Positions 7,764-18,397 of a DNA stretch of 64,000 bases are shown here, one piece after another; the stretch's first letter is position 1; each line of letters starts with the position of its first letter. Below the pieces are notes generated by a model, which saw only the letters and a program-made list of their open reading frames with translations, was not told the origin of the DNA and ran no database searches. A program made the translations under genes and the position numbers. The stretch is from Nitrospirota bacterium (GTDB taxonomy: Bacteria; Nitrospirota; JACRHJ01): positions 192,001 through 256,000 of the forward strand of contig CAVTDB010000003.1 in assembly GCA_963733375.1 (NCBI GenBank). Reading direction: 5' to 3'.

Positions 7764-8007
7764 GGCGGCCTGTGCCGCCCTCTTACATGCGCCGAGCGCA
7801 CGGTTTAAAATTCTCAAATTGCTTGTCTAAAACTGCCCTTCCGAGCCGTTTATTCTCAAATTGGCTTTTCCCGGCGATTTTCAGAATAGTCCTTTAAATC
7901 CCGTTATTTCCCATGTATTCCCGCCTTTTCCCGGCGTTTTCAGATTACTTGTCTTACTATAGTTGGATGAAAATTGCTACAATTTTGCTACATTGCCCGT
8001 TTTTGGC

Positions 8008-8041
8008 AAAAAAAAGGACTCACGGAAATCCGTAAGTCCTT
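8008..8041 (-). terminator. Rho-independent terminator after tRNA-Val
   Basis: AAGGACTTACGG-ATTT-CCGTGAGTCC followed by T8 on the - strand. Confidence 0.75.
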
Positions 8042-8049
8042 GATTTTAA

Positions 8050-8124
8050 TGGTAGGCGATGGGGGGTTCGAACCCTCGACCCCTGCCGTGTGAAGGCAGT
8101 GCTCTCCCGCTGAGCTAATCGCCC
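8050..8124 (-). tRNA. tRNA-Val (anticodon CAC)
   Basis: GGGCGATTAGCTCAGCGGGAGAGCA CTGCC TTCACAC GGCAG GGGTCGAGGGTTCGAACCCCCCATCGCCTACCA. Confidence 0.97.
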
Positions 8125-8236
8125 GTGTTACCTGTACTGATACCATAAAGTACGCCCGTTAGTCAACAGCTTTCGGAAAATGCGGTTGCAGTCTCGATGG
8201 ATGTATGTTAGCATTTTTTTTAAAATGGAGGATACG

Positions 8237-8407
8237 TTGACCAAACCGGGCTCGAAAGATATAGATAACGTGGCGAGGATCCTTACCGCGCTCCCGCCGG
8301 ATGAGGCGAAAAAGGTAATCCGCGAGATAAAGAATGAAAAAGACCCGGCGGGCAAGAAGAGGATTATAGAACTCGCGCTTAAGAAGAAGGGCATTAAACC
8401 GCTTTAG
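8237..8407 (+). CDS. Small hypothetical protein
   Basis: GGAGG RBS before TTG; amphipathic helical 56-aa ORF. Confidence 0.5.
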   Translation: MTKPGSKDIDNVARILTALPPDEAKKVIREIKNEKDPAGKKRIIELALKKKGIKPL

Positions 8408-9507
8408 GGGAATTCTTTAAACCTCGTTCCGGCCCTCGAAAGGACCAGAATCTCTCCGAACATCTCGCCTTGCGATTCCGGTTTTATTATTGAGCTTACG
8501 GCTGTCAGGGACCTGCCCATTATTTTTATTTCCCTGGGCCTTCTGAAAGCCTCCGCCGCGGAGCCGATTACTTCACATTTTGAACACTGGCCCCAGAGTT
8601 TTGCGCTGTCTTTCCCGATGAAGCTTCCGCCGCTGCAACTATATCCTTCAGAGTTTGCCCAACACCTGACGTAGTCTTTCTTGTACATGGGGCACGTCGG
8701 GCAGTTGCATTCCTTGACCTCCCAGCATCTCTTGCCGGTGGGGGCCGCGACGTTCCAGCCAAATACCTCGTCAAGCGGCGGGAGATTTATGAACTCCTGC
8801 ACGGACGTCCCCAGGAGTTCGTGGGACTTAAGCGGCAGATAGTTCTCCACCGATTTGTTCGCCTTCAGCACCACGCCTTCATGGGATAATAAAATAATAC
8901 CGTCCTCCACCTCGTCGAAAATAGTATTCAGCTTCTTCCGCTCCCTGGAGAGTTCCTGCATAAGGTGCGCGTTATCTATGACCACCGCCGCGTAATTGGC
9001 AAGCCTGGCCAGTTCCGCCTTATCTTCGTCCGTAAAGGGCGGGCCGCCCCTGAACGCGGATAGGCCGCCCATTATCTTGCCGTGCGCGATAAGCGGGGCC
9101 AGCGCGGCGGTCGTATAGCCAAGCTCTTTCGCCAGGTCCTTTGAGACGCGGGGGTCGTCGGTTAAATTTTCGCAGAGGATGGATTTCCTGTTTTCCAGCA
9201 CCCAGCCGCAAAGGCCGGACTTCTCTATGGGGAGCCGGATGGAAAGGAATTTCTCCTTGTTCCTGCCGTAGACATGTCCATAATGGATTTCCAGGTTATC
9301 CGGGGAAAGCATGGGGACCGCGACGGTATCTGCGCGTATCATGCGGGCGGCGGTCTGCGCTACAATGTCGATAAGCCTTGCGGGATCAGACTCCTCGGCG
9401 AAGTGCAGCAGGTTCGATTCAAGACTTTCGTATTTTTCGAGCTTGTCTTTAAGGTCTTGAATCTCTCTTTCGTACGGGTTTTGAAGTTCTTCCATCTCTT
9501 GTTCCAT
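8404..9507 (-). CDS. GAF + PAS sensor protein with Cys-rich CW-motif insert
   Basis: GAF (GLCGWVLENRKSIL..DDPR..APLIAHGKIMGGL), PAS (EDGIILLSHEGVVLKAN), CWEVKEC...CWA...CSKCEV. Confidence 0.85.
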   Translation of the reverse strand: MEQEMEELQNPYEREIQDLKDKLEKYESLESNLLHFAEESDPARLIDIVAQTAARMIRADTVAVPMLSPDNLEIHYGHVYGRNKEKFLSIRLPIEKSGLCGWVLENRKSILCENLTDDPRVSKDLAKELGYTTAALAPLIAHGKIMGGLSAFRGGPPFTDEDKAELARLANYAAVVIDNAHLMQELSRERKKLNTIFDEVEDGIILLSHEGVVLKANKSVENYLPLKSHELLGTSVQEFINLPPLDEVFGWNVAAPTGKRCWEVKECNCPTCPMYKKDYVRCWANSEGYSCSGGSFIGKDSAKLWGQCSKCEVIGSAAEAFRRPREIKIMGRSLTAVSSIIKPESQGEMFGEILVLSRAGTRFKEFP

Positions 9508-9852
9508 TTCTCTTTTAAAACATAAAACTAAAAAAAAATTCTAAACAAACATTTTTGCATTATATTTCCGGAAGATAAGCATGTCAACATTTATATAAAT
9601 AAATACTTGAAATTTATTTGTAGAATCTATATAATCTAACCCTAAAGTGTTAGAGGAAACTTAAAAAGAGTTTTTTATTAAGCAAAATCAAAGAGATAGC
9701 ATTTAGGAAAAACTCTCATTTAAGTCTCCGTGACGGTTCCTTGGCAACATAAAAATAAGTAAACCCGCTTGAGGACGGGTTGAAAAAAACCGGAAGTTAG
9801 AGTAAAATAGTTTGTATAACGGGCGGCAAACAAAAAGAAATTGGAGCAAAAT

Positions 9853-10266
9853 ATGACTAACAATTTGATTTATCAGGAAATCGGCAAGCGGATAAGGGAA
9901 CTGAGGGGGAACGAAAGACAGAAGGACTGGGCTTCAAAGATAGGTTGCGACCAGGGTTATATCTCCCAGGTGGAGAACGGCGTGACGAAGCCTTCGCTCT
10001 CGTTCCTTAAAGGGGTCTCCGGCATCACCAACTCGAGCATCGACTGGATGCTGACCGGCAGGGGTGACAGGTGGTGCGGCTTCAAGAGTTATTCCGCGCC
10101 CTCCGGAGACGACACTATCCAGAAGCTGAAGGACAACCCCAAGCTCCTCTTGGCGGTGGACAAGCTCCTTCGGATGAAGGATACCGGTATGGGCGTCCTG
10201 GAAGCCTTCTACGATATGGACGAACTTCGGATCGAGGGGCTTGCCGAGTTCATCGGGGCGAAATAA
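9853..10266 (+). CDS. XRE-family HTH regulator
   Basis: IGKRIRELRG..QGYISQVENGVTKPS..IDWMLTGRG. Confidence 0.9.
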   Translation: MTNNLIYQEIGKRIRELRGNERQKDWASKIGCDQGYISQVENGVTKPSLSFLKGVSGITNSSIDWMLTGRGDRWCGFKSYSAPSGDDTIQKLKDNPKLLLAVDKLLRMKDTGMGVLEAFYDMDELRIEGLAEFIGAK

Positions 10267-10398
10267 CGGCGTTAACCCGTTGCTTATCATCTCCGGACCC
10301 GTTACGAAGATGATCGCCCATCGGCATACTACAGCACGCGCATGCCGCCCCTGGAATGGATGGCCTGATTACGCGAATGCGTGACGAGGGGCGAACAG

Positions 10399-10887
10399 TT
10401 ATGTGTCCTTCAGCAGCCGCCCGAGGAGGTCGATAAGACCGCCTACTATTGCGCCCTCTAACGCGAACACGAATAAAAAGATAATAAAGATAAGGCCGCC
10501 TTCCAGCGAGAAAAGCTGGGCGGCCTCTTTTTTTGCTCCGGAAAAAAATGCCGCAGCGACCGCAACCACTATAAATGCCGCCCATGCCGCCGGCATCAGG
10601 AGCATCAGCCTGAACCAGAACCCCCGCCGGTAGAGCCAGCAGCCCGGGAAAAACGGTTCCAGGGGAGACCTTCTCCGGATGACCAGGTCCAGTATCCCTC
10701 CCAGAAGCGCCCCCGCCCAGCCCGCAAACAGCATCAGCAGGAAAACGTCGAATAATTCCGCCTGGCCTTTGCAACTCCCGGAATAAACATAGTACGAGTA
10801 TCCCGCCCCGGGCAGAAGGGCGGCAAGCGAAAAAACCCACCAGAGCGGCTTTTTCGGCTTTTTTATTCCGGCTGCATCAGCGCACAC
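10399..10887 (-). CDS. Hypothetical 4-TM membrane protein (start uncertain)
   Basis: Four hydrophobic segments; follows rlmI. Confidence 0.55.
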   Translation of the reverse strand: MCADAAGIKKPKKPLWWVFSLAALLPGAGYSYYVYSGSCKGQAELFDVFLLMLFAGWAGALLGGILDLVIRRRSPLEPFFPGCWLYRRGFWFRLMLLMPAAWAAFIVVAVAAAFFSGAKKEAAQLFSLEGGLIFIIFLFVFALEGAIVGGLIDLLGRLLKDT

Positions 10888-12053
10888 TTCAGGTACTCCG
10901 TCTCCGGCGCGCTCAAAAGCACTGGATGGTCCTTCGATTGGGAACGCGTCTCGATTATCCGGACTCCCCTGCCCGTCCCCGACGCACTCGCCCGTAGCAT
11001 TTCATAGAAATCTTCTCTGCCCAGGTGGTGAGAACAGGAACAGGAAATGAAAAATCCCCCCGGCCTGACGAGCCTTAAGGCCTTGGCGTTTAAATCCTTA
11101 TACCCGCGCAGCCCTTCGGCGATTTTGGCCCGGCTCTTTATAAAGGCTGGCGGGTCGGCCACTACCACGTCGAATTTTTTCCCCTCATCCGACATTCTTT
11201 TAAGGGCCGTCAGCGCGTCTTCCCGTATAAAATCCGCCCGCTCCGAACATCCGTTTAATTGTGCATTCTCCCTCGCGAAAGCCAGGGCGGGCGCGGACGA
11301 ATCCACGAAGGTTGCGCCCTTCGCCCCGAATTTAAGCGCTGAGATGCCCCAGGCCCCGGTATGGCAGAAGAGGTCCAGGACATCGGCATTGGCGGATATT
11401 TTCTCAAGCAGGGAATAGTTGTCCGCCTGGTCCAGGAAGAATCCGGTCTTCTGGCCTTCCAGCAGGTCGGCCTTCAGCTTCAGGCCTGATAAATCAATCT
11501 CTACAGCCCCGCCGTATTCACCGTACGCGATTTTTTTCTCCAGCGGCAGGCCCTCCAGGGCACGTAGCTTCGAGTCGTTCCTGAGCACTATGCCGGAAGG
11601 CTTGTAAACCTCCTTCAGCGCGTCCAGCACGTCCGGCAGGAGCCTCTCCATCCCCTGTGTCAGCGCCTGCACGGACAGCCAGTCTCCATACCTGTCCACG
11701 ATAAGCCCCGGCAGGAAATCAGACTCCGAGAACACCGCGCGCCAGGAATTTCTGTCTGGATAAAACCTCTCCCGGAGACGCTTTGCGTCTTCTATCCTTT
11801 TCTTCAAAAGAGCTACTGTAAACGGCTCGTCCCCGCGGGTAAGGAGCCTGACGGCGATCAGGCTGTGCGGGTTGACGTATCCCGTGCCGACGGGCCGTCC
11901 GGCGTAATCGGCCACCAGCACCATATCGCCCGGCGTAAGGCCCTTGGGGATATCCTCGAACTCGTTTGAGAACGCCCACGGGTGCCCACGGCGGATGCGG
12001 CGGTCTTCTTTCTTCTTCAGGCGAAGTGTCTTAATGGATGTATAGTTATTCAA
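10863..12053 (-). CDS. rlmI: 23S rRNA m5C1962-type SAM methyltransferase
   Basis: PUA (GHPWAFSNE), ESDFLPGLIVD, GQKTGFFLDQ, DPPAF, CSCSHH, ETEYLK. Confidence 0.9.
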   Translation of the reverse strand: MNNYTSIKTLRLKKKEDRRIRRGHPWAFSNEFEDIPKGLTPGDMVLVADYAGRPVGTGYVNPHSLIAVRLLTRGDEPFTVALLKKRIEDAKRLRERFYPDRNSWRAVFSESDFLPGLIVDRYGDWLSVQALTQGMERLLPDVLDALKEVYKPSGIVLRNDSKLRALEGLPLEKKIAYGEYGGAVEIDLSGLKLKADLLEGQKTGFFLDQADNYSLLEKISANADVLDLFCHTGAWGISALKFGAKGATFVDSSAPALAFARENAQLNGCSERADFIREDALTALKRMSDEGKKFDVVVADPPAFIKSRAKIAEGLRGYKDLNAKALRLVRPGGFFISCSCSHHLGREDFYEMLRASASGTGRGVRIIETRSQSKDHPVLLSAPETEYLKCALMQPE

Positions 12054-12147
12054 AATTATTCCTTTTTATAAATAAGTTTAAGGGAGATTTATCAAGAAAG
12101 GGCATAGATGTAAAAAAGGAAACTTGATGTGAGGAAGAAATATCTTA

Positions 12148-13140
12148 TCACTTTTTCTTGTGAGTAAGTATAAAGGCTGTTGCAATAATTACAATACCAA
12201 TAGCCACCGCGAAATTTGCACGAGCGCTATCACTAAGATTCTTAATTTTAAGGAAGCTATTAGCACCATACATAAGAGGGATAAGTCCGACTACAACCCC
12301 GGCAATTTTTGTAAACTTCTTCGTAAAAATTGTTTCAATGCTATCCAAAAAACTTTGCTGTAATTCTTTAAGTTTCCCCGAAAGGTGCTCCGTCTCATTA
12401 TCAATTTTAGTGGATAATTCTCCAGTTCTTTTTTCAAACTGCTCTTTCATTAGTAAGACATCTTTTGAAACCATCTCAAATTTTCCATCAAGCGCGACGA
12501 GTTCAGTGCCGATATGATCAAATGGATACCCGGCTTCACGAAGTTGTTTTTTGGGATCAAGTTTAGCAAATGATGACGATATAATTTTATTTTTAGGAAT
12601 GTCGGCTGGAATTTGACGTGTAGAGCGAACTATGCCATCTGAATCTTGATATTTGTCGGTTTCTCGTTCACCGTATGGTAGATTTGGTACTTCATTCCCT
12701 TCGAGAAGAAAGATAGTAAGTTTGAAAATTGGTTCGCCATATTGAACAACGAGTTCTTTATTGGAATTATTTCGAAGGCTCCAATTTAATTTACCTCGAA
12801 ATCCCGCGTCTATTTTAGTTGTAAGTTGAGAAATACCCTCTCGCATCATTGTAGTTGTGGGCGTAATTAAACCCATCAACATGGAATTAGGATAAATCTT
12901 ATTAACCGTGTCAGGCGTAAAATCAATTTTTTCTAAGCTAGAGATAAGTACCGTTTCACCCGGATTGACTTGAAGAAACGTGCCGGGTTTGAGTTCATTT
13001 TCTTCACCCGTCGAACTAAATTTGACATGCGCTCCAAGCCTTAGCTCGATACTATTAGGTTTGATACGATTTTCATCGGAGTCTACAATGATAGAATCCA
13101 ATAATTTCTTAATTTCGTGGTCGGCAAGTACCTGAGCCAT
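12148..13140 (-). CDS. dCTP deaminase/dUTPase-fold protein with coiled coil and two C-terminal TM helices
   Basis: VLADHEI..IKPNSIELRLG..PGETVL..IDAGFRGKL..YGEPI; AT-rich relative to neighbours. Confidence 0.8.
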   Translation of the reverse strand: MAQVLADHEIKKLLDSIIVDSDENRIKPNSIELRLGAHVKFSSTGEENELKPGTFLQVNPGETVLISSLEKIDFTPDTVNKIYPNSMLMGLITPTTTMMREGISQLTTKIDAGFRGKLNWSLRNNSNKELVVQYGEPIFKLTIFLLEGNEVPNLPYGERETDKYQDSDGIVRSTRQIPADIPKNKIISSSFAKLDPKKQLREAGYPFDHIGTELVALDGKFEMVSKDVLLMKEQFEKRTGELSTKIDNETEHLSGKLKELQQSFLDSIETIFTKKFTKIAGVVVGLIPLMYGANSFLKIKNLSDSARANFAVAIGIVIIATAFILTHKKK

Positions 13141-13173
13141 AGAGAATCCTTAATCTGCCCTTAACTAGGCCTG

Positions 13174-14135
13174 TTACTCCCGGACATCGACATACGCCTT
13201 TTCCCGCAGTTCGCCTATCCATTTCGCGAACAGCTTCTCGCCCTGCTGTGCGGAAAGCTCCTCGACTATCTCGGGCCGGGCGTCATCAAGGGTCTTGGAC
13301 GACGCCTCCGTCTTCTCCATCACCTTTATAAGCTGGTATCCTTTATCGTCTGATTTTATCGGCTGGCTAACCTCTCCCTGCTTCATGCCGAACGCGGCGG
13401 CTTCGATATCCGGGGCGAGTTCCCCTTTGCCGAACGTGCCCAGGACACAGCGTCTTGGACGCGCCCTCGTCCCCGGTGCATTTCGCGGCCATCTCCTCGA
13501 ACGGCGTCCCCTTTTCTATCTCCGCCCTCGCCTCGTTCGCGGCCTTTAGCGCCCCGTCCATATCTCCGTCTTTAGCGGGGAACAGGATATGCGCCACCTT
13601 GACGGACGCGGGGATTACGAACTTCGATTTATTCTCGTTATAGTATTTTACGATGTCCTCGTCCTTGATGGATATCCTCGATTTTACGTCGTGGCCGACG
13701 AGCCTCATTATCAGGAGCTGGTCGCCCAGGTTCTGCTTATAGTCGTCGGCGACATATCCCTCGTTCTCCAGCGCGGCGTCGAAGGCGGCTTTATCCATGT
13801 GGTTCTTCTTCATGATGTCATCGATGGCCGCGTCCACCTCTTCCTTGGATACCTCTATCCCCTCTTTCTTCGCCTCCTGGACCTGGAGGTATTTGTCCAC
13901 CAGGCCGTTAACGGTCGCCTTCCTTAGCTTCTCCTCAGCTCTCGCCAGGTCCTCGCCGTCGTAACGCTGTTTAAGCTGGCTAAGCGACGGGGCCATCTCG
14001 CTCTGGAGTTCGCTTAAGGTTATCAACGTCCGGCCCGACTATCGCCACTACCCGGTCTATCTCGACCGCAGACGAAGTCGAAACAAAAAATAGCATCGGC
14101 AAAAGCGCGCCTATGACAAGGCTTAACTTCTTCAT
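13174..14135 (-). CDS. SurA-like parvulin PPIase (frameshifted)
   Basis: Signal peptide, IDRVVAIV/ITLSEL, VKVAHIL, GEVSQPI, WIGELREKAYV across three frames. Confidence 0.85.
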
Positions 14136-14345
14136 AATGGAACACCTTCCGTAGAGATTGCAAACATACCGAAAACTCCCGAAAAGATAACATGAAAGGG
14201 GCTGTCAAAGCAAGCGATATCATAAATACCGGGAACGAGGGCGGACATGAAGCCGATTAAGAATAACAAGCAGGGGTGGACAGATACATGTTGAACGGGC
14301 TTTTCAACTCTGCTAAAGTGCTCTGTCATGAAAAAGCGCCATCTC

Positions 14346-15356
14346 ATGAAAAAAATATTCCTTCTGCTCATCATTTTGGCCCTCGTTTCCTCCTGCTCCA
14401 AAAAAGAAGGGCTGTATCAGGAAACCCGGGTGATAATGGGGACGTATGTCACCATTACCTTAAACGAGAACGGCAAAAGCCAGGACGATTTGACTAAGGC
14501 TGCCAGTGACGCGTTTGCGCAGATTACGAAGGTGGACGAGCTTATGAGCACCTATAAGCCCGAGTCCAACCTGAGCCGGATAAACCAGTCCGCCGGAATA
14601 GCGCCCGTCCATGCGGACCCGGAGGTCATCGATAACATCGAGAAGGCGCTATATGTCGCCAAACTCACGGACGGCGCGTTCGACGTGACCGTCGGGCCGC
14701 TGGTTAATGCCTGGAAGATAGGCTCCAAAGGTGCGCGTGTGCCCTCGCCGGACGAGATAAGGAAGGCGCTCACACTAGTGGGCTGGCGGAATATCGAAAT
14801 CGATAAACACGCCGGGACGGTTTTCATAAAGAAACGGGGCGCATCGATCGACCTTGGCGGTATAGCGAAGGGCTACGCCTCCGACATGGCGGTTTCAGTC
14901 CTGAAGAAGGCGGGCATAAAGGGCGGCATCGTCGCCTGCGCCGGGGATATAAAAGTCTTCGGCGTCCGTCCTGACGGCACGCTCTGGACGGTCGGCATAC
15001 AGCACCCGCGCAAGAAAGATGGCGAGCTGATGGCCAAGCTCACCCTGACAGACTGCGCGCTATCTACCTCCGGCGATTACGAGCGATACTTTCTAAAGGA
15101 CGGCGTGCGCTACCACCATATCCTGGACCCCAGGACGGGCTATCCCGCGCGGGGGCTGATGAGCGTCACGGTGCTGTCGAAGGAGTCGTGGCTCTCGGAC
15201 TCAATGGGTAAGTTGTTCGTCCTCGGGCCGGATAAGGCTTACGCGCTGGCCCTAAAGCATCCGGAAATCGAGGTCCTGATGATAACCGACGCGGGTAAGG
15301 TCCTGGCGACGGGCAGGTTCAAGGGATTAAAGGTGGCGCCGGTAGGGGCCGGATAA
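14346..15356 (+). CDS. apbE: FAD:protein FMN transferase lipoprotein
   Basis: Lipobox, MGT, GAFDVTVGPL, DLGGIAKGY, STSGDYERY, HHILDPRTG. Confidence 0.95.
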   Translation: MKKIFLLLIILALVSSCSKKEGLYQETRVIMGTYVTITLNENGKSQDDLTKAASDAFAQITKVDELMSTYKPESNLSRINQSAGIAPVHADPEVIDNIEKALYVAKLTDGAFDVTVGPLVNAWKIGSKGARVPSPDEIRKALTLVGWRNIEIDKHAGTVFIKKRGASIDLGGIAKGYASDMAVSVLKKAGIKGGIVACAGDIKVFGVRPDGTLWTVGIQHPRKKDGELMAKLTLTDCALSTSGDYERYFLKDGVRYHHILDPRTGYPARGLMSVTVLSKESWLSDSMGKLFVLGPDKAYALALKHPEIEVLMITDAGKVLATGRFKGLKVAPVGAG

Positions 15357-15379
15357 AAAATAAATTTAGGAGATTTCCA

Positions 15380-16072
15380 ATGCAAACTGATTGGCAGAAA
15401 CAGGTAAGTGCTAGTACTTTAGAGGGTGCCGCTATTAGTGTAGTTTTAAAAGGTTTACCTAATACATGTCCAGTATGTAGTCATAAAATGACTCCTCATA
15501 TTCAAGCTATTATTATTATTCCATTTCCGCCGGTGAAAAAGGTACAAGTTGCTTTTAGGTGTGCAAATTCCGCATGTCAAGAATTGTTTATTGGAACTTA
15601 TAATTTACTTCCGGGAAGAACTTCTGACTATTTGTTTTTTAAATCTGAACCCCTAAAATACAGAGAAAAAGAATTTCCCGCAACAATTAAAGAGATTTCG
15701 GTCGATTTTGTCAAAATTTATAACCAAGCACTAGCTGCCGAAGCAGCCAATTTAAACGAAATTGTTGGTATTGGTCTTAGAAAGTCTCTTGAATTTTTAA
15801 TAAAAGATTTTGCTTTGAAAATGAATCCCGATAAGGATGAGGAAATAAAAAAATGCTCGCTTGCATCGTGCATTAGTAATTATGTTGCTGATACAAATAT
15901 TAAAGAATGTGCCAAAAGGGCAACCTGGCTCGGAAACGATGAAACTCACTACATAAAAAAATGGGAAGACAAGGATATTGAGGACTTAAAACGACTTGTT
16001 CATTTAACCGTGAATTGGATAGACAGTGTAATACTAACAAAAAAATATACTGACGAAATGGCAAGTTCTTAA
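15380..16072 (+). CDS. DUF4145-like protein with N-terminal Zn ribbon
   Basis: CPVC..CANSAC, RKSLEFLIKD, WLGNDETH; AT-rich. Confidence 0.75.
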   Translation: MQTDWQKQVSASTLEGAAISVVLKGLPNTCPVCSHKMTPHIQAIIIIPFPPVKKVQVAFRCANSACQELFIGTYNLLPGRTSDYLFFKSEPLKYREKEFPATIKEISVDFVKIYNQALAAEAANLNEIVGIGLRKSLEFLIKDFALKMNPDKDEEIKKCSLASCISNYVADTNIKECAKRATWLGNDETHYIKKWEDKDIEDLKRLVHLTVNWIDSVILTKKYTDEMASS

Positions 16073-16116
16073 GGTTGAAACCTTCTTGCCTATAAGGAGC
16101 TATTGATTAAATATGG

Positions 16117-16144
16117 AAAAGGCCCGGCAATAGCCGGGCCTTTT
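16117..16144. terminator. Bidirectional terminator
   Basis: AAAAGGCCCGGC-AATA-GCCGGGCCTTTT between convergent genes. Confidence 0.85.
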
Positions 16145-16163
16145 GTTGTAGCGTAACAGTGGG

Positions 16164-17963
16164 TTAATCGTCCCCGCCGCGTCCGGACACCCCGGCGAGC
16201 GCCTGAGATATGGCCTGTATCTGCGCGCTCGTAAGAGAGGAACTTAACGAACTCATCTGGTACACGGAGTTCAGTGCGCTCTGTATCGTCGAGGTCGATG
16301 AGCCTCCTATCGACGAAGTTGCGAGCGCTCCATGACAGCTTGAGCAGTACGTCGTGTAAAGGGTCGGCCCATCCAGGGTCGTGGTGCCTCCTCCCCCGGA
16401 GGTGCCGCCTCCGGACGTGGACCCGCTGAGCGCCTGCGCTATGGCCTGTATCTGCGTGGTCGTGAGGGAACTGAGCGAACTCATCTGGGACACGGAGCTT
16501 ATGCCTGTTTGTATCAGCGCGGCGGTTGCGCCTGATTTAGACGAGGTAGCAAGCGGGCCGTGGCAGCCGGAGCAGTATGTGCCGTAAAGCGTTGCCCCGT
16601 CCGTTGTCGTCGTGCCTCCCCCGGTCGAGCCACCGGAAGTGCCGCCCCCGAAGGTGCCTGAAGTGACGTTGCTGTTCTTCCACTGGTACTGGTGCGGCCA
16701 GTTCGTCGTGTCGGTCGAGTTTATCGCGGTATGGCAGATATTGCAGCCGTTTTTTCTCTGCGGGTTCTGGTAGCCGTGCTCTTCGAGATAATCCGACAGG
16801 CCTTCCCCTTTCGAACTGCTGTGGCAGGCCCCGCAACTCCCGATTGTCTTTGCCGCGCCCTGATACTGGTTGGCCTGGTAGTTGTCGGAGGCTTCCCTCG
16901 ACGGCAACATCGCGTGCGGCGAGTTGTGGCAGGCCGAGCAGTGAAGCCCGCCGTGCCCGGCCGCGTTCCTGTACAGGGTCGTGCCCGTATCTACCTCGGC
17001 GACACCCTGATGGCACGTGACGCATTTCGGCTCGCTCATCCAGGGTATCCTGCCGCCGGTCATTGCCGTATTGGCTACGTTCGCCATATCGCCGTGGCAG
17101 GTGGTGCAGCCGCCGTCGGCATTGGTATGCGCAAGGCTCCTGCTGCACTGGGTCTTGTCGCCGGGATGGCAGTCGTAGCAGGTCGCGCCCTTGTCGCTGT
17201 GGAATTTATGCATCGCCACGGAGAGGTATTCCGTCGCGCCGCCCTGGTTGACGGTATGCAGTACCGGGTCGGCATGGCAGCCGGCGCAGAGCACCGGGCC
17301 ACTGCCGGATAAGTGCGTGCCCTGCGCTGCGTCATGTTTTTTAAGGATATCGCCAAGCGGGTCCGTACTGCCGTGGCACTTGGCGCAGTTTATCTCGTCC
17401 GATACCGGCAGCGTCGTCCGCGTCTGGGCGACGACCGTACCGGCCTTGTTCTTCACGGTAATGATTGCGACCTGGTACGGGTTCCATACTCCTTTGTCGT
17501 TGAGCGGAGTGGCGGGTATACCGTCGGCCTCGAACTGAGAGCCGTGAACGACCATTTTGCCGGCAAGCCCGTTGTGTATCGTCGGGTCGACCAAGTTCAG
17601 CCCCGTGTTCGCCTTAAGGGTGATCCCGAACAGCTTCATGCAATTGGCCCAGAACTGTCCAAAGAGACCCTTGCCGGAGGAATAGGTGTTGCCGACTAAG
17701 CTGTAACTTACGGTCAGGCCCGTCGTGACCACCGTCGGCGGGTCGCCTCGCTTTACCACCTGGACTATCAGCGTATTATAAGGCGGCAGGATGACCGCCT
17801 TGTCGAATTCATTGTTGGCGCAGTGCATGCCGAGGTCGTTCCAGGCAAACACCACGTAATTTGATTTAACGGTTACACTTCCAGCCAATGCCGACTGCGC
17901 CAGCATTATAGTGGCAAAAGAAACTACGGTAATCGTCGCTATCATGCGCCTAATTCCAAACAT
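16164..17963 (-). CDS. Secreted multiheme cytochrome c (10 CxxCH)
   Basis: Signal peptide, WNDLGMHC N-domain, 8 clustered CxxCH plus two C-terminal monoheme repeats; AGGAG RBS. Confidence 0.93.
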   Translation of the reverse strand: MFGIRRMIATITVVSFATIMLAQSALAGSVTVKSNYVVFAWNDLGMHCANNEFDKAVILPPYNTLIVQVVKRGDPPTVVTTGLTVSYSLVGNTYSSGKGLFGQFWANCMKLFGITLKANTGLNLVDPTIHNGLAGKMVVHGSQFEADGIPATPLNDKGVWNPYQVAIITVKNKAGTVVAQTRTTLPVSDEINCAKCHGSTDPLGDILKKHDAAQGTHLSGSGPVLCAGCHADPVLHTVNQGGATEYLSVAMHKFHSDKGATCYDCHPGDKTQCSRSLAHTNADGGCTTCHGDMANVANTAMTGGRIPWMSEPKCVTCHQGVAEVDTGTTLYRNAAGHGGLHCSACHNSPHAMLPSREASDNYQANQYQGAAKTIGSCGACHSSSKGEGLSDYLEEHGYQNPQRKNGCNICHTAINSTDTTNWPHQYQWKNSNVTSGTFGGGTSGGSTGGGTTTTDGATLYGTYCSGCHGPLATSSKSGATAALIQTGISSVSQMSSLSSLTTTQIQAIAQALSGSTSGGGTSGGGGTTTLDGPTLYTTYCSSCHGALATSSIGGSSTSTIQSALNSVYQMSSLSSSLTSAQIQAISQALAGVSGRGGDD

Positions 17964-18397
17964 TGTCTTTCTCCTTTTCTTTCTGCTCCACTCGGTATTT
18001 CTTCCATCCGCCGCATTTGAGAAAGCTGCCGTCCGTGGTGCAGGCGTCCTGACCTTCACCTAGTTTATTACCTTTAAGGTAATGTAACCACGGTCCAGGG
18101 TGCGGGCGTCGCGACCTGCACTCCTTATGTCTTGCAAACCATGGTTAAAACTTGCGATAAAGCTACCAGCCGCCCCGCTCACTGTCAATAATAATTATTA
18201 TTAAAAACATTTAACTTGTATCGCATTATTTGGTTTTTGTTAGTGATCAAGGGCGGTTATATAACTGTTTGGCTTAGGATTTTTCTCACGGATTATTAAA
18301 ACCGCTTAAGGCGCATCGCGTTTGATTTTCCTGGTCATCGCGCTATACTTCTAGTTATGTGGGCTATTCTGAGTTTTAACGTGGAGAGGGGACGGCA

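Follow-up and report, generated by a model that had tools for sequence, protein, structure and literature searches.

A membrane-anchored protein of the dCTP deaminase/dUTPase fold encoded by a mobile, stand-alone gene in a Nitrospirota bacterium

The fold common to the deoxycytidine triphosphate (dCTP) deaminases, Dcd, and the deoxyuridine triphosphate (dUTP) pyrophosphatases, dUTPases, is known from soluble enzymes with housekeeping functions and, among staphylococcal phages, from a moonlighting signalling protein. Proteins of this fold are homotrimers with the active sites at the subunit interfaces, and in both Dcd and dUTPases a C-terminal arm becomes ordered and closes over the bound nucleotide. 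Here we describe a gene found at positions 12148–13140 (minus strand) of a 64,000-nucleotide stretch of a Nitrospirota genome (assembly GCA_963733375.1, contig CAVTDB010000003.1, positions 192,001–256,000; hereafter the window), whose product is this known fold in an undescribed membrane-anchored architecture. As shown by the predicted model, a cytoplasmic head with a nucleotide site is followed by an invariant linker, an amphipathic stalk helix of ~70 residues and a two-helix membrane hairpin. Acquired recently and spreading horizontally, the gene stands alone as an insert of low G+C content (GC), and it belongs to a large, apparently undescribed family. Our preferred reading, held tentatively at a probability of about 0.4, is a single-protein conflict system of the abortive-infection type, directed against phages or mobile DNA and with nucleotide-to-membrane coupling.

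The closest described proteins, both in sequence and in structure, are archaeal Dcd-type dUTPases (P45, 9ln0/9ln3; T. pacificus, 8y1w; S. tokodaii, 2yzj/2zdc), matched with E-values (E) of 5e-6 to 1e-8 and TM-scores against the target (TMt) of 0.79–0.89. Like the family described here, they lack the Dcd Glu and carry the signature (I/V)D(A/P)G(F/W/Y).G, the Arg of ..AREG and an arm of the type Y-Q...S.R. They are, however, soluble proteins of about 155–169 amino acids (aa) with an R/K-S-S/T motif, whereas the family has T-T-T at this place, a Lys before the Asp and ~154 extra residues forming the linker, the stalk and two transmembrane (TM) helices. The same fold is found, with Foldseek E of about 1e-11 and TMt of 0.70–0.75, in E. 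coli Dcd (1xs1/2v9x) and in the Dcd-dUTPases of M. jannaschii and M. tuberculosis; Dcd and the family have Pfam PF22769 in common and their arm motifs PY...KY..Q.G...S align. Unlike Dcd, the family has Ser121 (mostly Gly, never Glu) at the position of E138, is encoded by a mobile gene and is anchored in the membrane.

Nucleotide depletion by dCTP deaminase and deoxyguanosine triphosphatase (dGTPase) systems is an established defence strategy, and a functional analogy with such enzymes is possible, given a nucleotide-pool enzyme fold in a mobile stand-alone gene. The Zn-dependent defensive dCTP deaminases have a cytidine-deaminase-like fold and no membrane part. As stated in an earlier, sequence-based reading of this gene (hereafter the original prediction), that fold is a different one; the PADLOC dCTPase model did not match the window protein.

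Fold and nucleotide site of the head

Both profile and fold place the protein in the Dcd/dUTPase superfamily, as originally predicted. The Pfam family PF22769 (DCD, "dCTP deaminase-like") matched aa 4–143 with 46.1 bits against a cut-off of 27, and with 44 bits in the genome-wide scan. A structural model was obtained with AlphaFold2 from a 96-sequence alignment, with a mean predicted local distance difference test (pLDDT) of 84.5, compared with 69.6 for a 22-sequence alignment; in the head, pLDDT was 91–96 up to aa 150, dropping to 84–89 across the arm. When the model was searched with Foldseek against the PDB, only Dcd, bifunctional Dcd-dUTPases and dUTPases were retrieved, with probability 1.00 and TMt of 0.70–0.89; among them were E. 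coli Dcd 2v9x (E 1.7e-11, TMt 0.74), dUTPase P45 (9ln0, 0.89), T. pacificus dUTPase (8y1w, 0.89) and S. tokodaii 2yzj (0.79). The models for the individual enzymes did not reach their cut-offs, neither the dCTP deaminase equivalog TIGR02274 (49.8 bits, cut-off 92.8) nor the archaeal dUTPase equivalog NF002598 (PRK02253; 22.6 bits, cut-off 130).

Two motifs had been singled out in the original prediction, PTTTMMRE instead of xRSSxAR and IDAGFRGKLNWS instead of the motif bearing the catalytic Glu, and both are present as described. In HMMER alignments, PTTTMMREG is matched with IRSSLAREG of the archaeal dUTPases; IDAGFRGKLNWS (aa 110–121) aligns with VDPGWDGNLTLM of the archaeal dUTPases and with IDPGWSGCIVLE of E. 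coli Dcd, and KIDAGFRGKLNWSLRN aligns, again by HMMER, with WVDPGWDGNLTLMLYN (P45), VIDAGYKGKVNVAI (S. tokodaii) and RIDPGWSGCIVLEFYN (E. coli Dcd). Residue invariance was counted over 118 full-length family members. E138, the catalytic Glu of E. coli Dcd, falls on Ser121, in an alignment of low significance (E = 0.08) that is nevertheless consistent with the Foldseek fold match. Across the family this position holds Gly (102), Ala (9) or Ser (7) and no Glu, so that the predicted loss of the deaminase Glu is confirmed and, on sequence grounds, dCTP deamination is excluded for the family because the residue is missing in 118/118.

The loss of this Glu does not amount to a dead site, since the nearest solved relatives, the archaeal proteins 9ln0 (P45), 8y1w and 2yzj/2zdc, are active dUTPases that carry Met, Leu or Ala at the same position; to call the head catalytically degenerate, as was done originally, thus goes too far. 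Indeed, Asp111, Arg100, Lys109, Thr95–97, Asn124 and Ser126 are invariant, and so are Pro94, Glu101 and, in the C-terminal arm, Tyr156, Tyr164, Gln165, Ser173 and Arg175, while Phe114 is kept in 117/118. Asp111 aligns with the D of VDPGW/IDAGY in dUTPases and is the motif-3 Asp, which acts as general base in the trimeric enzymes; the arm aligns with those of T. pacificus dUTPase and E. coli Dcd. In only one clear respect does the family depart from both classes of enzyme, in that Thr95 replaces the first Arg/Lys of the R-S-S motif: instead of the Arg/Lys-Ser-Ser(Thr) of motif 2, T95-T96-T97 was found in all 118 members, with the later Arg100 alone being kept. Judged by these residues, the head has every appearance of a site that binds deoxynucleotides specifically and, with Asp111, Arg100, Lys109, Phe114 and the arm residues retained, it may therefore hydrolyse a nucleotide.

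Linker, stalk, membrane hairpin and relatives

Beyond the head, the 154 residues of aa 177–330 end in two hydrophobic helices followed by HKKK, in agreement with the ~150 residues of coiled coil, two TM helices and KKK tail that had been foreseen. Both C-terminal TM helices were found by hydropathy, at about aa 279–297 and 307–327, and in the model, which contains one continuous helix at aa 207–299 and a second at aa 304–327; the arm/linker region is extended, with modest pLDDT (65–76). In the stalk (aa 207–278, 118 sequences), 56% of the heptad a/d positions are hydrophobic, against 27% of the others. Mean column identity was highest in the linker (0.88 over aa 177–222, a region containing DPKKQLREAGYPF), followed by the head (0.79), TM1 with its Gly/Pro-rich motif (0.68), the stalk (0.66) and TM2 (0.55). 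The conserved motif of TM1 seems to be more than a plain anchor would need. An N-in/C-in topology is suggested by the basic residues that border the hairpin at both of its cytoplasmic ends. The features of the gene and its surroundings are listed in Table 1.

Table 1. Position of the gene, its protein segments and the insert within the window (aa, residues of the protein).
Feature	Position	Strand	Residues	Basis
Membrane-anchored Dcd/dUTPase-like protein, whole open reading frame (ORF)	12148..13140	(-)	330 aa + stop	ORF list, Pfam, AlphaFold2 model
Head: Dcd/dUTPase beta-barrel and C-terminal arm (aa ~150-176)	12613..13140	(-)	aa 1-176	Pfam DCD, Foldseek
PTTTMMRE at the position of the R-S-S-x-A-R phosphate-binding motif; Arg100 kept	12838..12861	(-)	aa 94-101	
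Motif IDAGFRGKLNWS; Asp111 kept, Ser121 at the position of the Dcd catalytic Glu	12778..12813	(-)	aa 110-121	
Linker including DPKKQLREAGYPF, the most conserved stretch of the family	12523..12612	(-)	aa 177-206	Column identity
Stalk, long amphipathic heptad helix (putative coiled coil)	12307..12522	(-)	aa 207-278	Model, a/d hydrophobicity
TM helix 1 with conserved Gly/Pro-rich motif G.I.G.IP.MYGG	12250..12306	(-)	aa 279-297	Hydropathy, alignment
TM helix 2	12160..12222	(-)	aa 307-327	Hydropathy, model helix 304-327
Basic tail KKK after TM helix 2	12151-12159	(-)		Sequence
Low-GC insert, ~1148 bp, in the surA-like/rlmI slot	12021..13167	(.)		blastn against relatives, GC profile
Shine-Dalgarno-like AAGGA 5' of the ATG	13147..13151	(-)		Sequence

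Among 3282 candidates, a search for homologues yielded 670 with E<=1e-3, and the best 120 of them, 294–353 aa in length and nearly all full-length, were 57–67% identical to the window protein. With 670 homologues, mostly of equal length, the feature is far beyond chance. In an exhaustive search of 50%-identity representatives, 270 clusters were found at E<=1e-3, a number that dropped to 59 when the limit was set to E<=1e-30. No description of a protein combining the DCD fold with TM helices in defence was retrieved from the full-text literature. When the tail (aa 177–330) was used as query for its possible shuffling onto other heads, only the same family was recovered in the best 120 of 295 hits; head and tail thus behave as one co-evolving unit. 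Nothing significant was obtained with the tail against PADLOC, NCBIfam and Pfam (ZorA, E = 0.018; EMC3_TMCO1 and Sec10_N, E > 0.1), and no SLATT match was found.

More distantly, proteins of 227–281 aa (P0244, P0252, P0253, P0255, P0261, P0262, P0265, P0266, P0268, P0224 and P0215) show the same theme: their DCD head likewise lacks the Glu and is joined through a short helix to TM helices at the C-terminus, while motif 2 differs from one protein to the next. A search of the ESM Atlas with the homologue P0044 gave DCD-family clusters only, some of them made of 'hypothetical' proteins of 279–314 aa. Taken with the window family, these Glu-less DCD proteins with TM helices indicate that membrane-tethered Dcd-like proteins form a wider superfamily that has been overlooked.

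These relatives bear on an alternative in which the head is at once active enzyme and effector: a membrane-tethered, dUTPase-like deoxynucleoside triphosphate (dNTP) pyrophosphatase would deplete or sanitise dUTP, dCTP or a modified dNTP, and the stalk and hairpin would serve as anchor or regulator, for example by activating the enzyme upon membrane perturbation by phage entry. The activity of the nearest solved relatives, which are monofunctional dUTPases likewise without the Dcd Glu, the invariance of the dUTPase-type Asp111 and of the arm residues, and the use of nucleotide depletion in defence all speak for it. In the DefensePredictor study (PMC13092281), moreover, 'a dUTPase' figures among the predicted, unvalidated defence domains, and the supplement gives names such as 'dCTP deaminase' with scores. 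Against it stand, on the other hand, the Thr that replaces the first Arg of the R-S-S motif in every member and the equivalog scores far under their cut-offs; the variation of motif 2 among the distant TM-linked subfamilies is better explained by an altered or lost chemistry than by a single conserved reaction, and a plain anchor would need neither the conserved TM1 motif nor a hairpin. We regard an enzyme-effector as possible, if somewhat unlikely.

Mobility and the surA–rlmI slot

The lone AT-rich gene between surA-like and rlmI was located exactly where the original prediction had put it. Its GC is 0.377, compared with 0.549 for the window, and the profile shows a trough of 0.35–0.42 at the gene between flanks of 0.55–0.61. 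Upstream, on the same strand, lies the gene of a SurA-like peptidyl-prolyl isomerase (13174–14026; Pfam SurA_N_3, Rotamase), whose stop is 33 nt from the start of the gene; downstream, an RlmI-like protein with PUA and S-adenosylmethionine-dependent methyltransferase domains is encoded (10863–12053). At the gene locus no terminator-like site was found, and promoter-like sites occurred only at the shuffled expectation.

The gene was found in 1/41 genomes searched, the window's own, and was not found in 40/40 related genomes, including two of the same genus that are 97% and 94% complete, while rlmI was found in 21/21. In blastn comparisons with same-genus genomes, homology ends at window position 13168 and resumes at 12020–12035. 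The distance between the flanks, 1148 bp in the window where it holds the Dcd-like membrane gene, is 18 bp in G008, with nothing between; 321 bp in G002, with a hydrophobic ORF of 68 aa (L048:1272-1478, +); 809 bp in G001, with a 240-aa protein of no family and an N-terminal hydrophobic segment (L049:2684-3406, -); and 869 bp in G006, with a 280-aa protein having a Pfam HNH domain (L052:2669-3511, -). Since both distance and content vary among relatives, the slot is a hotspot for cargo. A search for flanking repeats or target duplications at the insert retrieved only short, chance-like repeats.

Relatives are encoded at 46 loci of species-representative genomes, from at least 10 phyla: Acidobacteriota, Verrucomicrobiota, Pseudomonadota, Gemmatimonadota, Planctomycetota, Zixiibacteriota, Thermodesulfobacteriota, Binatota, Stahliibacteriota and Vulcanimicrobiota. 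In 45/46 loci the GC of the gene is lower than that of its flanks. A maximum-likelihood tree was built with 39 rows, leaving out 8 (three for want of a single ORF, four because their ORFs were truncated or split, and a form of 422 aa), and it contains starred cross-phylum sister pairs, namely Syntrophaceae with Zixiibacteriota and Acidobacteriaceae with Vulcanimicrobiota. A unit of 1.8 kb made of a DDE transposase and the gene is 71% identical at DNA level between an Acidobacteriaceae metagenome-assembled genome (MAG; L015:9155-10947) and a Vulcanimicrobiota MAG (L042:9125-10947), and in 7/46 loci the gene is closely preceded by an ORF for an IS1/IS240-like DDE transposase in the same orientation. 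At two loci (L044:10001-11105 and L046:9962-11028) the homologue was called as two consecutive ORFs, which may reflect frameshifts, gene decay or errors in the MAGs, and at L004, L009 and L038 no single ORF spans the homologue match.

That the gene is an ordinary housekeeping paralogue of a dCTP deaminase or dUTPase is a reading to which some homologues owe their name in the source annotations, 'deoxycytidine triphosphate deaminase'. It is nearly excluded by the catalytic Glu missing from the whole family and the TIGR02274 cut-off not being reached, by the failure to find the gene in any of 40 relatives, and by the membrane anchor and the lack of conserved synteny. The gene is also not the cell's dUTPase, because another contig of the window genome encodes a canonical Dut (PF00692, 121 bits).

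Further observations were made around the insert. The SurA-like gene directly upstream is split into two ORFs (13367-14026 and 13174-13386, minus strand) by a 1-nt insertion near 13451 (AAGACGCTG vs AAGAC-CTG in two intact genes of the same genus), this being either an assembly error or a recent pseudogene. A second single-gene islet of low GC (0.34–0.40) lies 2.2 kb away, between ApbE-like and multihaem cytochrome genes (15380-16072, plus strand); its 230-aa product has Cys-rich, zinc-ribbon-like motifs and a sub-threshold match to DUF4145 (21.3 vs 23.1 bits), gave no PADLOC match and was not found among 20 related genomes. Low GC (0.35–0.38) was also seen at 9250-10266, a stretch that lies upstream of an XRE-type helix-turn-helix gene (9841-10266) and extends into it; that gene matches the PADLOC model HTH_VI (E 8e-8).

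Gene neighbourhood and possible role

From the 46 loci and the window, 799 ORFs were clustered and no conserved neighbour emerged: no cluster is present in more than 7 loci, and the one reaching 7 is the transposase. Housekeeping synteny, which would have spoken against the original prediction, is absent. Pfam was run on 137/142 ORFs lying within two genes of the homologue at 43 loci, leaving out the 5 longest ORFs and 3 loci without a single target ORF. Conflict or mobile families found there were type I hsdM/hsdS, AbiEii, SocA/Panacea (twice), BrnT, Fic, PIN, Schlafen/AlbA_2, DUF499, an SDH-type protease (twice) and transposases, whereas no dCMP-hydroxymethylase family occurred among these 137 neighbours. 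PADLOC added HmaC, PDC-S05, PDC-M43A/B, PDC-S31, PDC-M11A/B, PDC-M19A, AbiEi, hsdR, LeoA-like and SoFic. In a gammaproteobacterial MAG (L005:5036-10987) the homologue follows directly after a type I restriction–modification system, in the order hsdR-hsdM-hsdS-gene and all on the same strand, and at L017 the order is hsdR fragment, AbiEi, AbiEii, one ORF, gene. By our judgement, a credible defence-family gene lies within four genes in 12/43 loci, a count that leaves out generic hits (topoisomerase to DpdF, IscS to DndA, methyltransferases to mad2).

The same neighbourhoods bear on the analogy, drawn in the original prediction, with the effectors of CBASS (cyclic-oligonucleotide-based antiphage signalling system) and Pycsar (pyrimidine cyclase system for antiphage resistance), and on a reading in which the protein would respond to a cyclic nucleotide made by a cyclase. 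Two TM helices are indeed present, and the general layout of a cytoplasmic nucleotide-binding head with two TM helices is common to those effectors and the family. No CD-NTase or cyclase was found, however, either by Pfam among the 137 neighbours within two genes or by PADLOC among the 137 + 118 within four genes of the 43 loci. According to Pfam, the head does not belong to SAVED, cNMP-binding or any other known class of cyclic-nucleotide sensors, and the family differs further from these effectors by the fold of its head, its long, putatively coiled-coil stalk and a tail that, in the best 120 of 295 hits, was not seen on other heads. Contradicted by a gene context without cyclase and without any conserved neighbour, a CBASS-like effector is nearly excluded.

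A conflict or abortive-infection role is plausible, and for it nucleotide-to-membrane coupling would be the most economical mechanism. In its favour are the architecture with its invariant nucleotide-site residues, the mobile, accessory character of the gene and the defence genes close to some copies. The head would form a trimer like every solved member of the fold, giving a three-stranded stalk and six membrane helices. As the arm continues unbroken into linker, stalk and membrane hairpin, the occupancy of the nucleotide site would be mechanically coupled to the hairpin. Candidate signals would be dUTP, dCTP, dTTP, a phage-made dNTP or their loss, and a universal small-molecule ligand is favoured over a fast-evolving phage protein because of the very high conservation across phyla. 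The response would take place at the membrane, in abortive-infection style. In a more specific form, which we put forward as doubtful, the family would be a new class of single-protein abortive-infection systems: a trimeric dUTPase-fold gauge of the dNTP pool, whose arm closure would be relayed by the three-stranded coiled coil to a membrane pore of six helices and make it open or close, with no need for a cyclase or partner.

Several points weigh against the conflict-system reading. Among neighbouring genes, PADLOC hits at E<=1e-10, counted mechanically, made up 17/137 at one to two genes and 12/118 at three to four genes, in comparison with 11/137 at seven or more genes away in the same loci and 2/57 for the window genes outside 8000–18100, taken as a crude baseline. 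The association with defence genes is therefore suggestive, about threefold over the baseline, and not significant (Fisher p = 0.07 for near vs baseline, 0.14 for all vs baseline and 0.32 for near vs far), with weak controls in that the baseline comes from one genome and the far set lies within 10 kb; this was the check on defence-island enrichment proposed with the original prediction. Plain housekeeping functions, such as those of aconitase, transketolase, NadA, GreA and topoisomerase I, account for many of the genes within two positions, and most neighbours are either of this kind or of unknown function. PADLOC v2 does not cover the family, the ZorA match cited above being the only hit of the window protein. 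The carriers are all uncultured MAGs. For a protein engaged in an arms race, 57–67% identity between phyla is remarkably high and argues against recognition of a phage protein, and the tail, unlike those of many modular effectors, is not shuffled onto other sensor domains. Finally, we infer the trimer and its coupling to the membrane by analogy with the solved members of the fold.

An origin from phages or plasmids was considered and rejected. A pattern scan of IMG/VR contigs retrieved no full-length relative, and in 50,697 phage and 72,556 plasmid records tblastn detected nothing beyond head-domain matches of 25–29% identity; these two results, too, count against a conflict role. In BFVD, only ordinary phage Dcd and dUTPases were found. 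With no full-length relatives found in phages or plasmids, a holin or phage-lysis function was also set aside.

The gene could instead be accessory or selfish cargo without a role in phage defence, for example a passenger of insertion sequences (IS) or a niche nucleotide-handling membrane protein of soil and sediment bacteria. Such a cargo would account for the IS linkage in 7/46 loci and the 1.8-kb transposase–gene unit, the mostly housekeeping or family-less neighbours, the lack of significant enrichment and the very high sequence conservation. Nevertheless, a single-gene low-GC insert in a variable slot that elsewhere holds an HNH nuclease is typical of defence cargo, as is a position directly behind type I restriction–modification or AbiE genes, and no other physiological context recurs; we consider this explanation unlikely. 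As for the original prediction of a defence sensor as a whole, the fold, the loss of the Glu, the coiled coil with two TM helices and the lone gene stand, whereas the catalytic degeneracy and the CBASS/Pycsar analogy do not; the enrichment is suggestive and not significant.

The dUTPase/Dcd fold is here the head of a conserved, length-invariant membrane protein that moves singly among at least 10 phyla. Were the head an active enzyme, the family would provide the first membrane-tethered nucleotide depleter of the dUTPase type. If the preferred reading as a defence or conflict system is true, it would represent a compact sensor-effector, encoded by one gene and responding to ordinary nucleotide metabolism instead of a dedicated second messenger.

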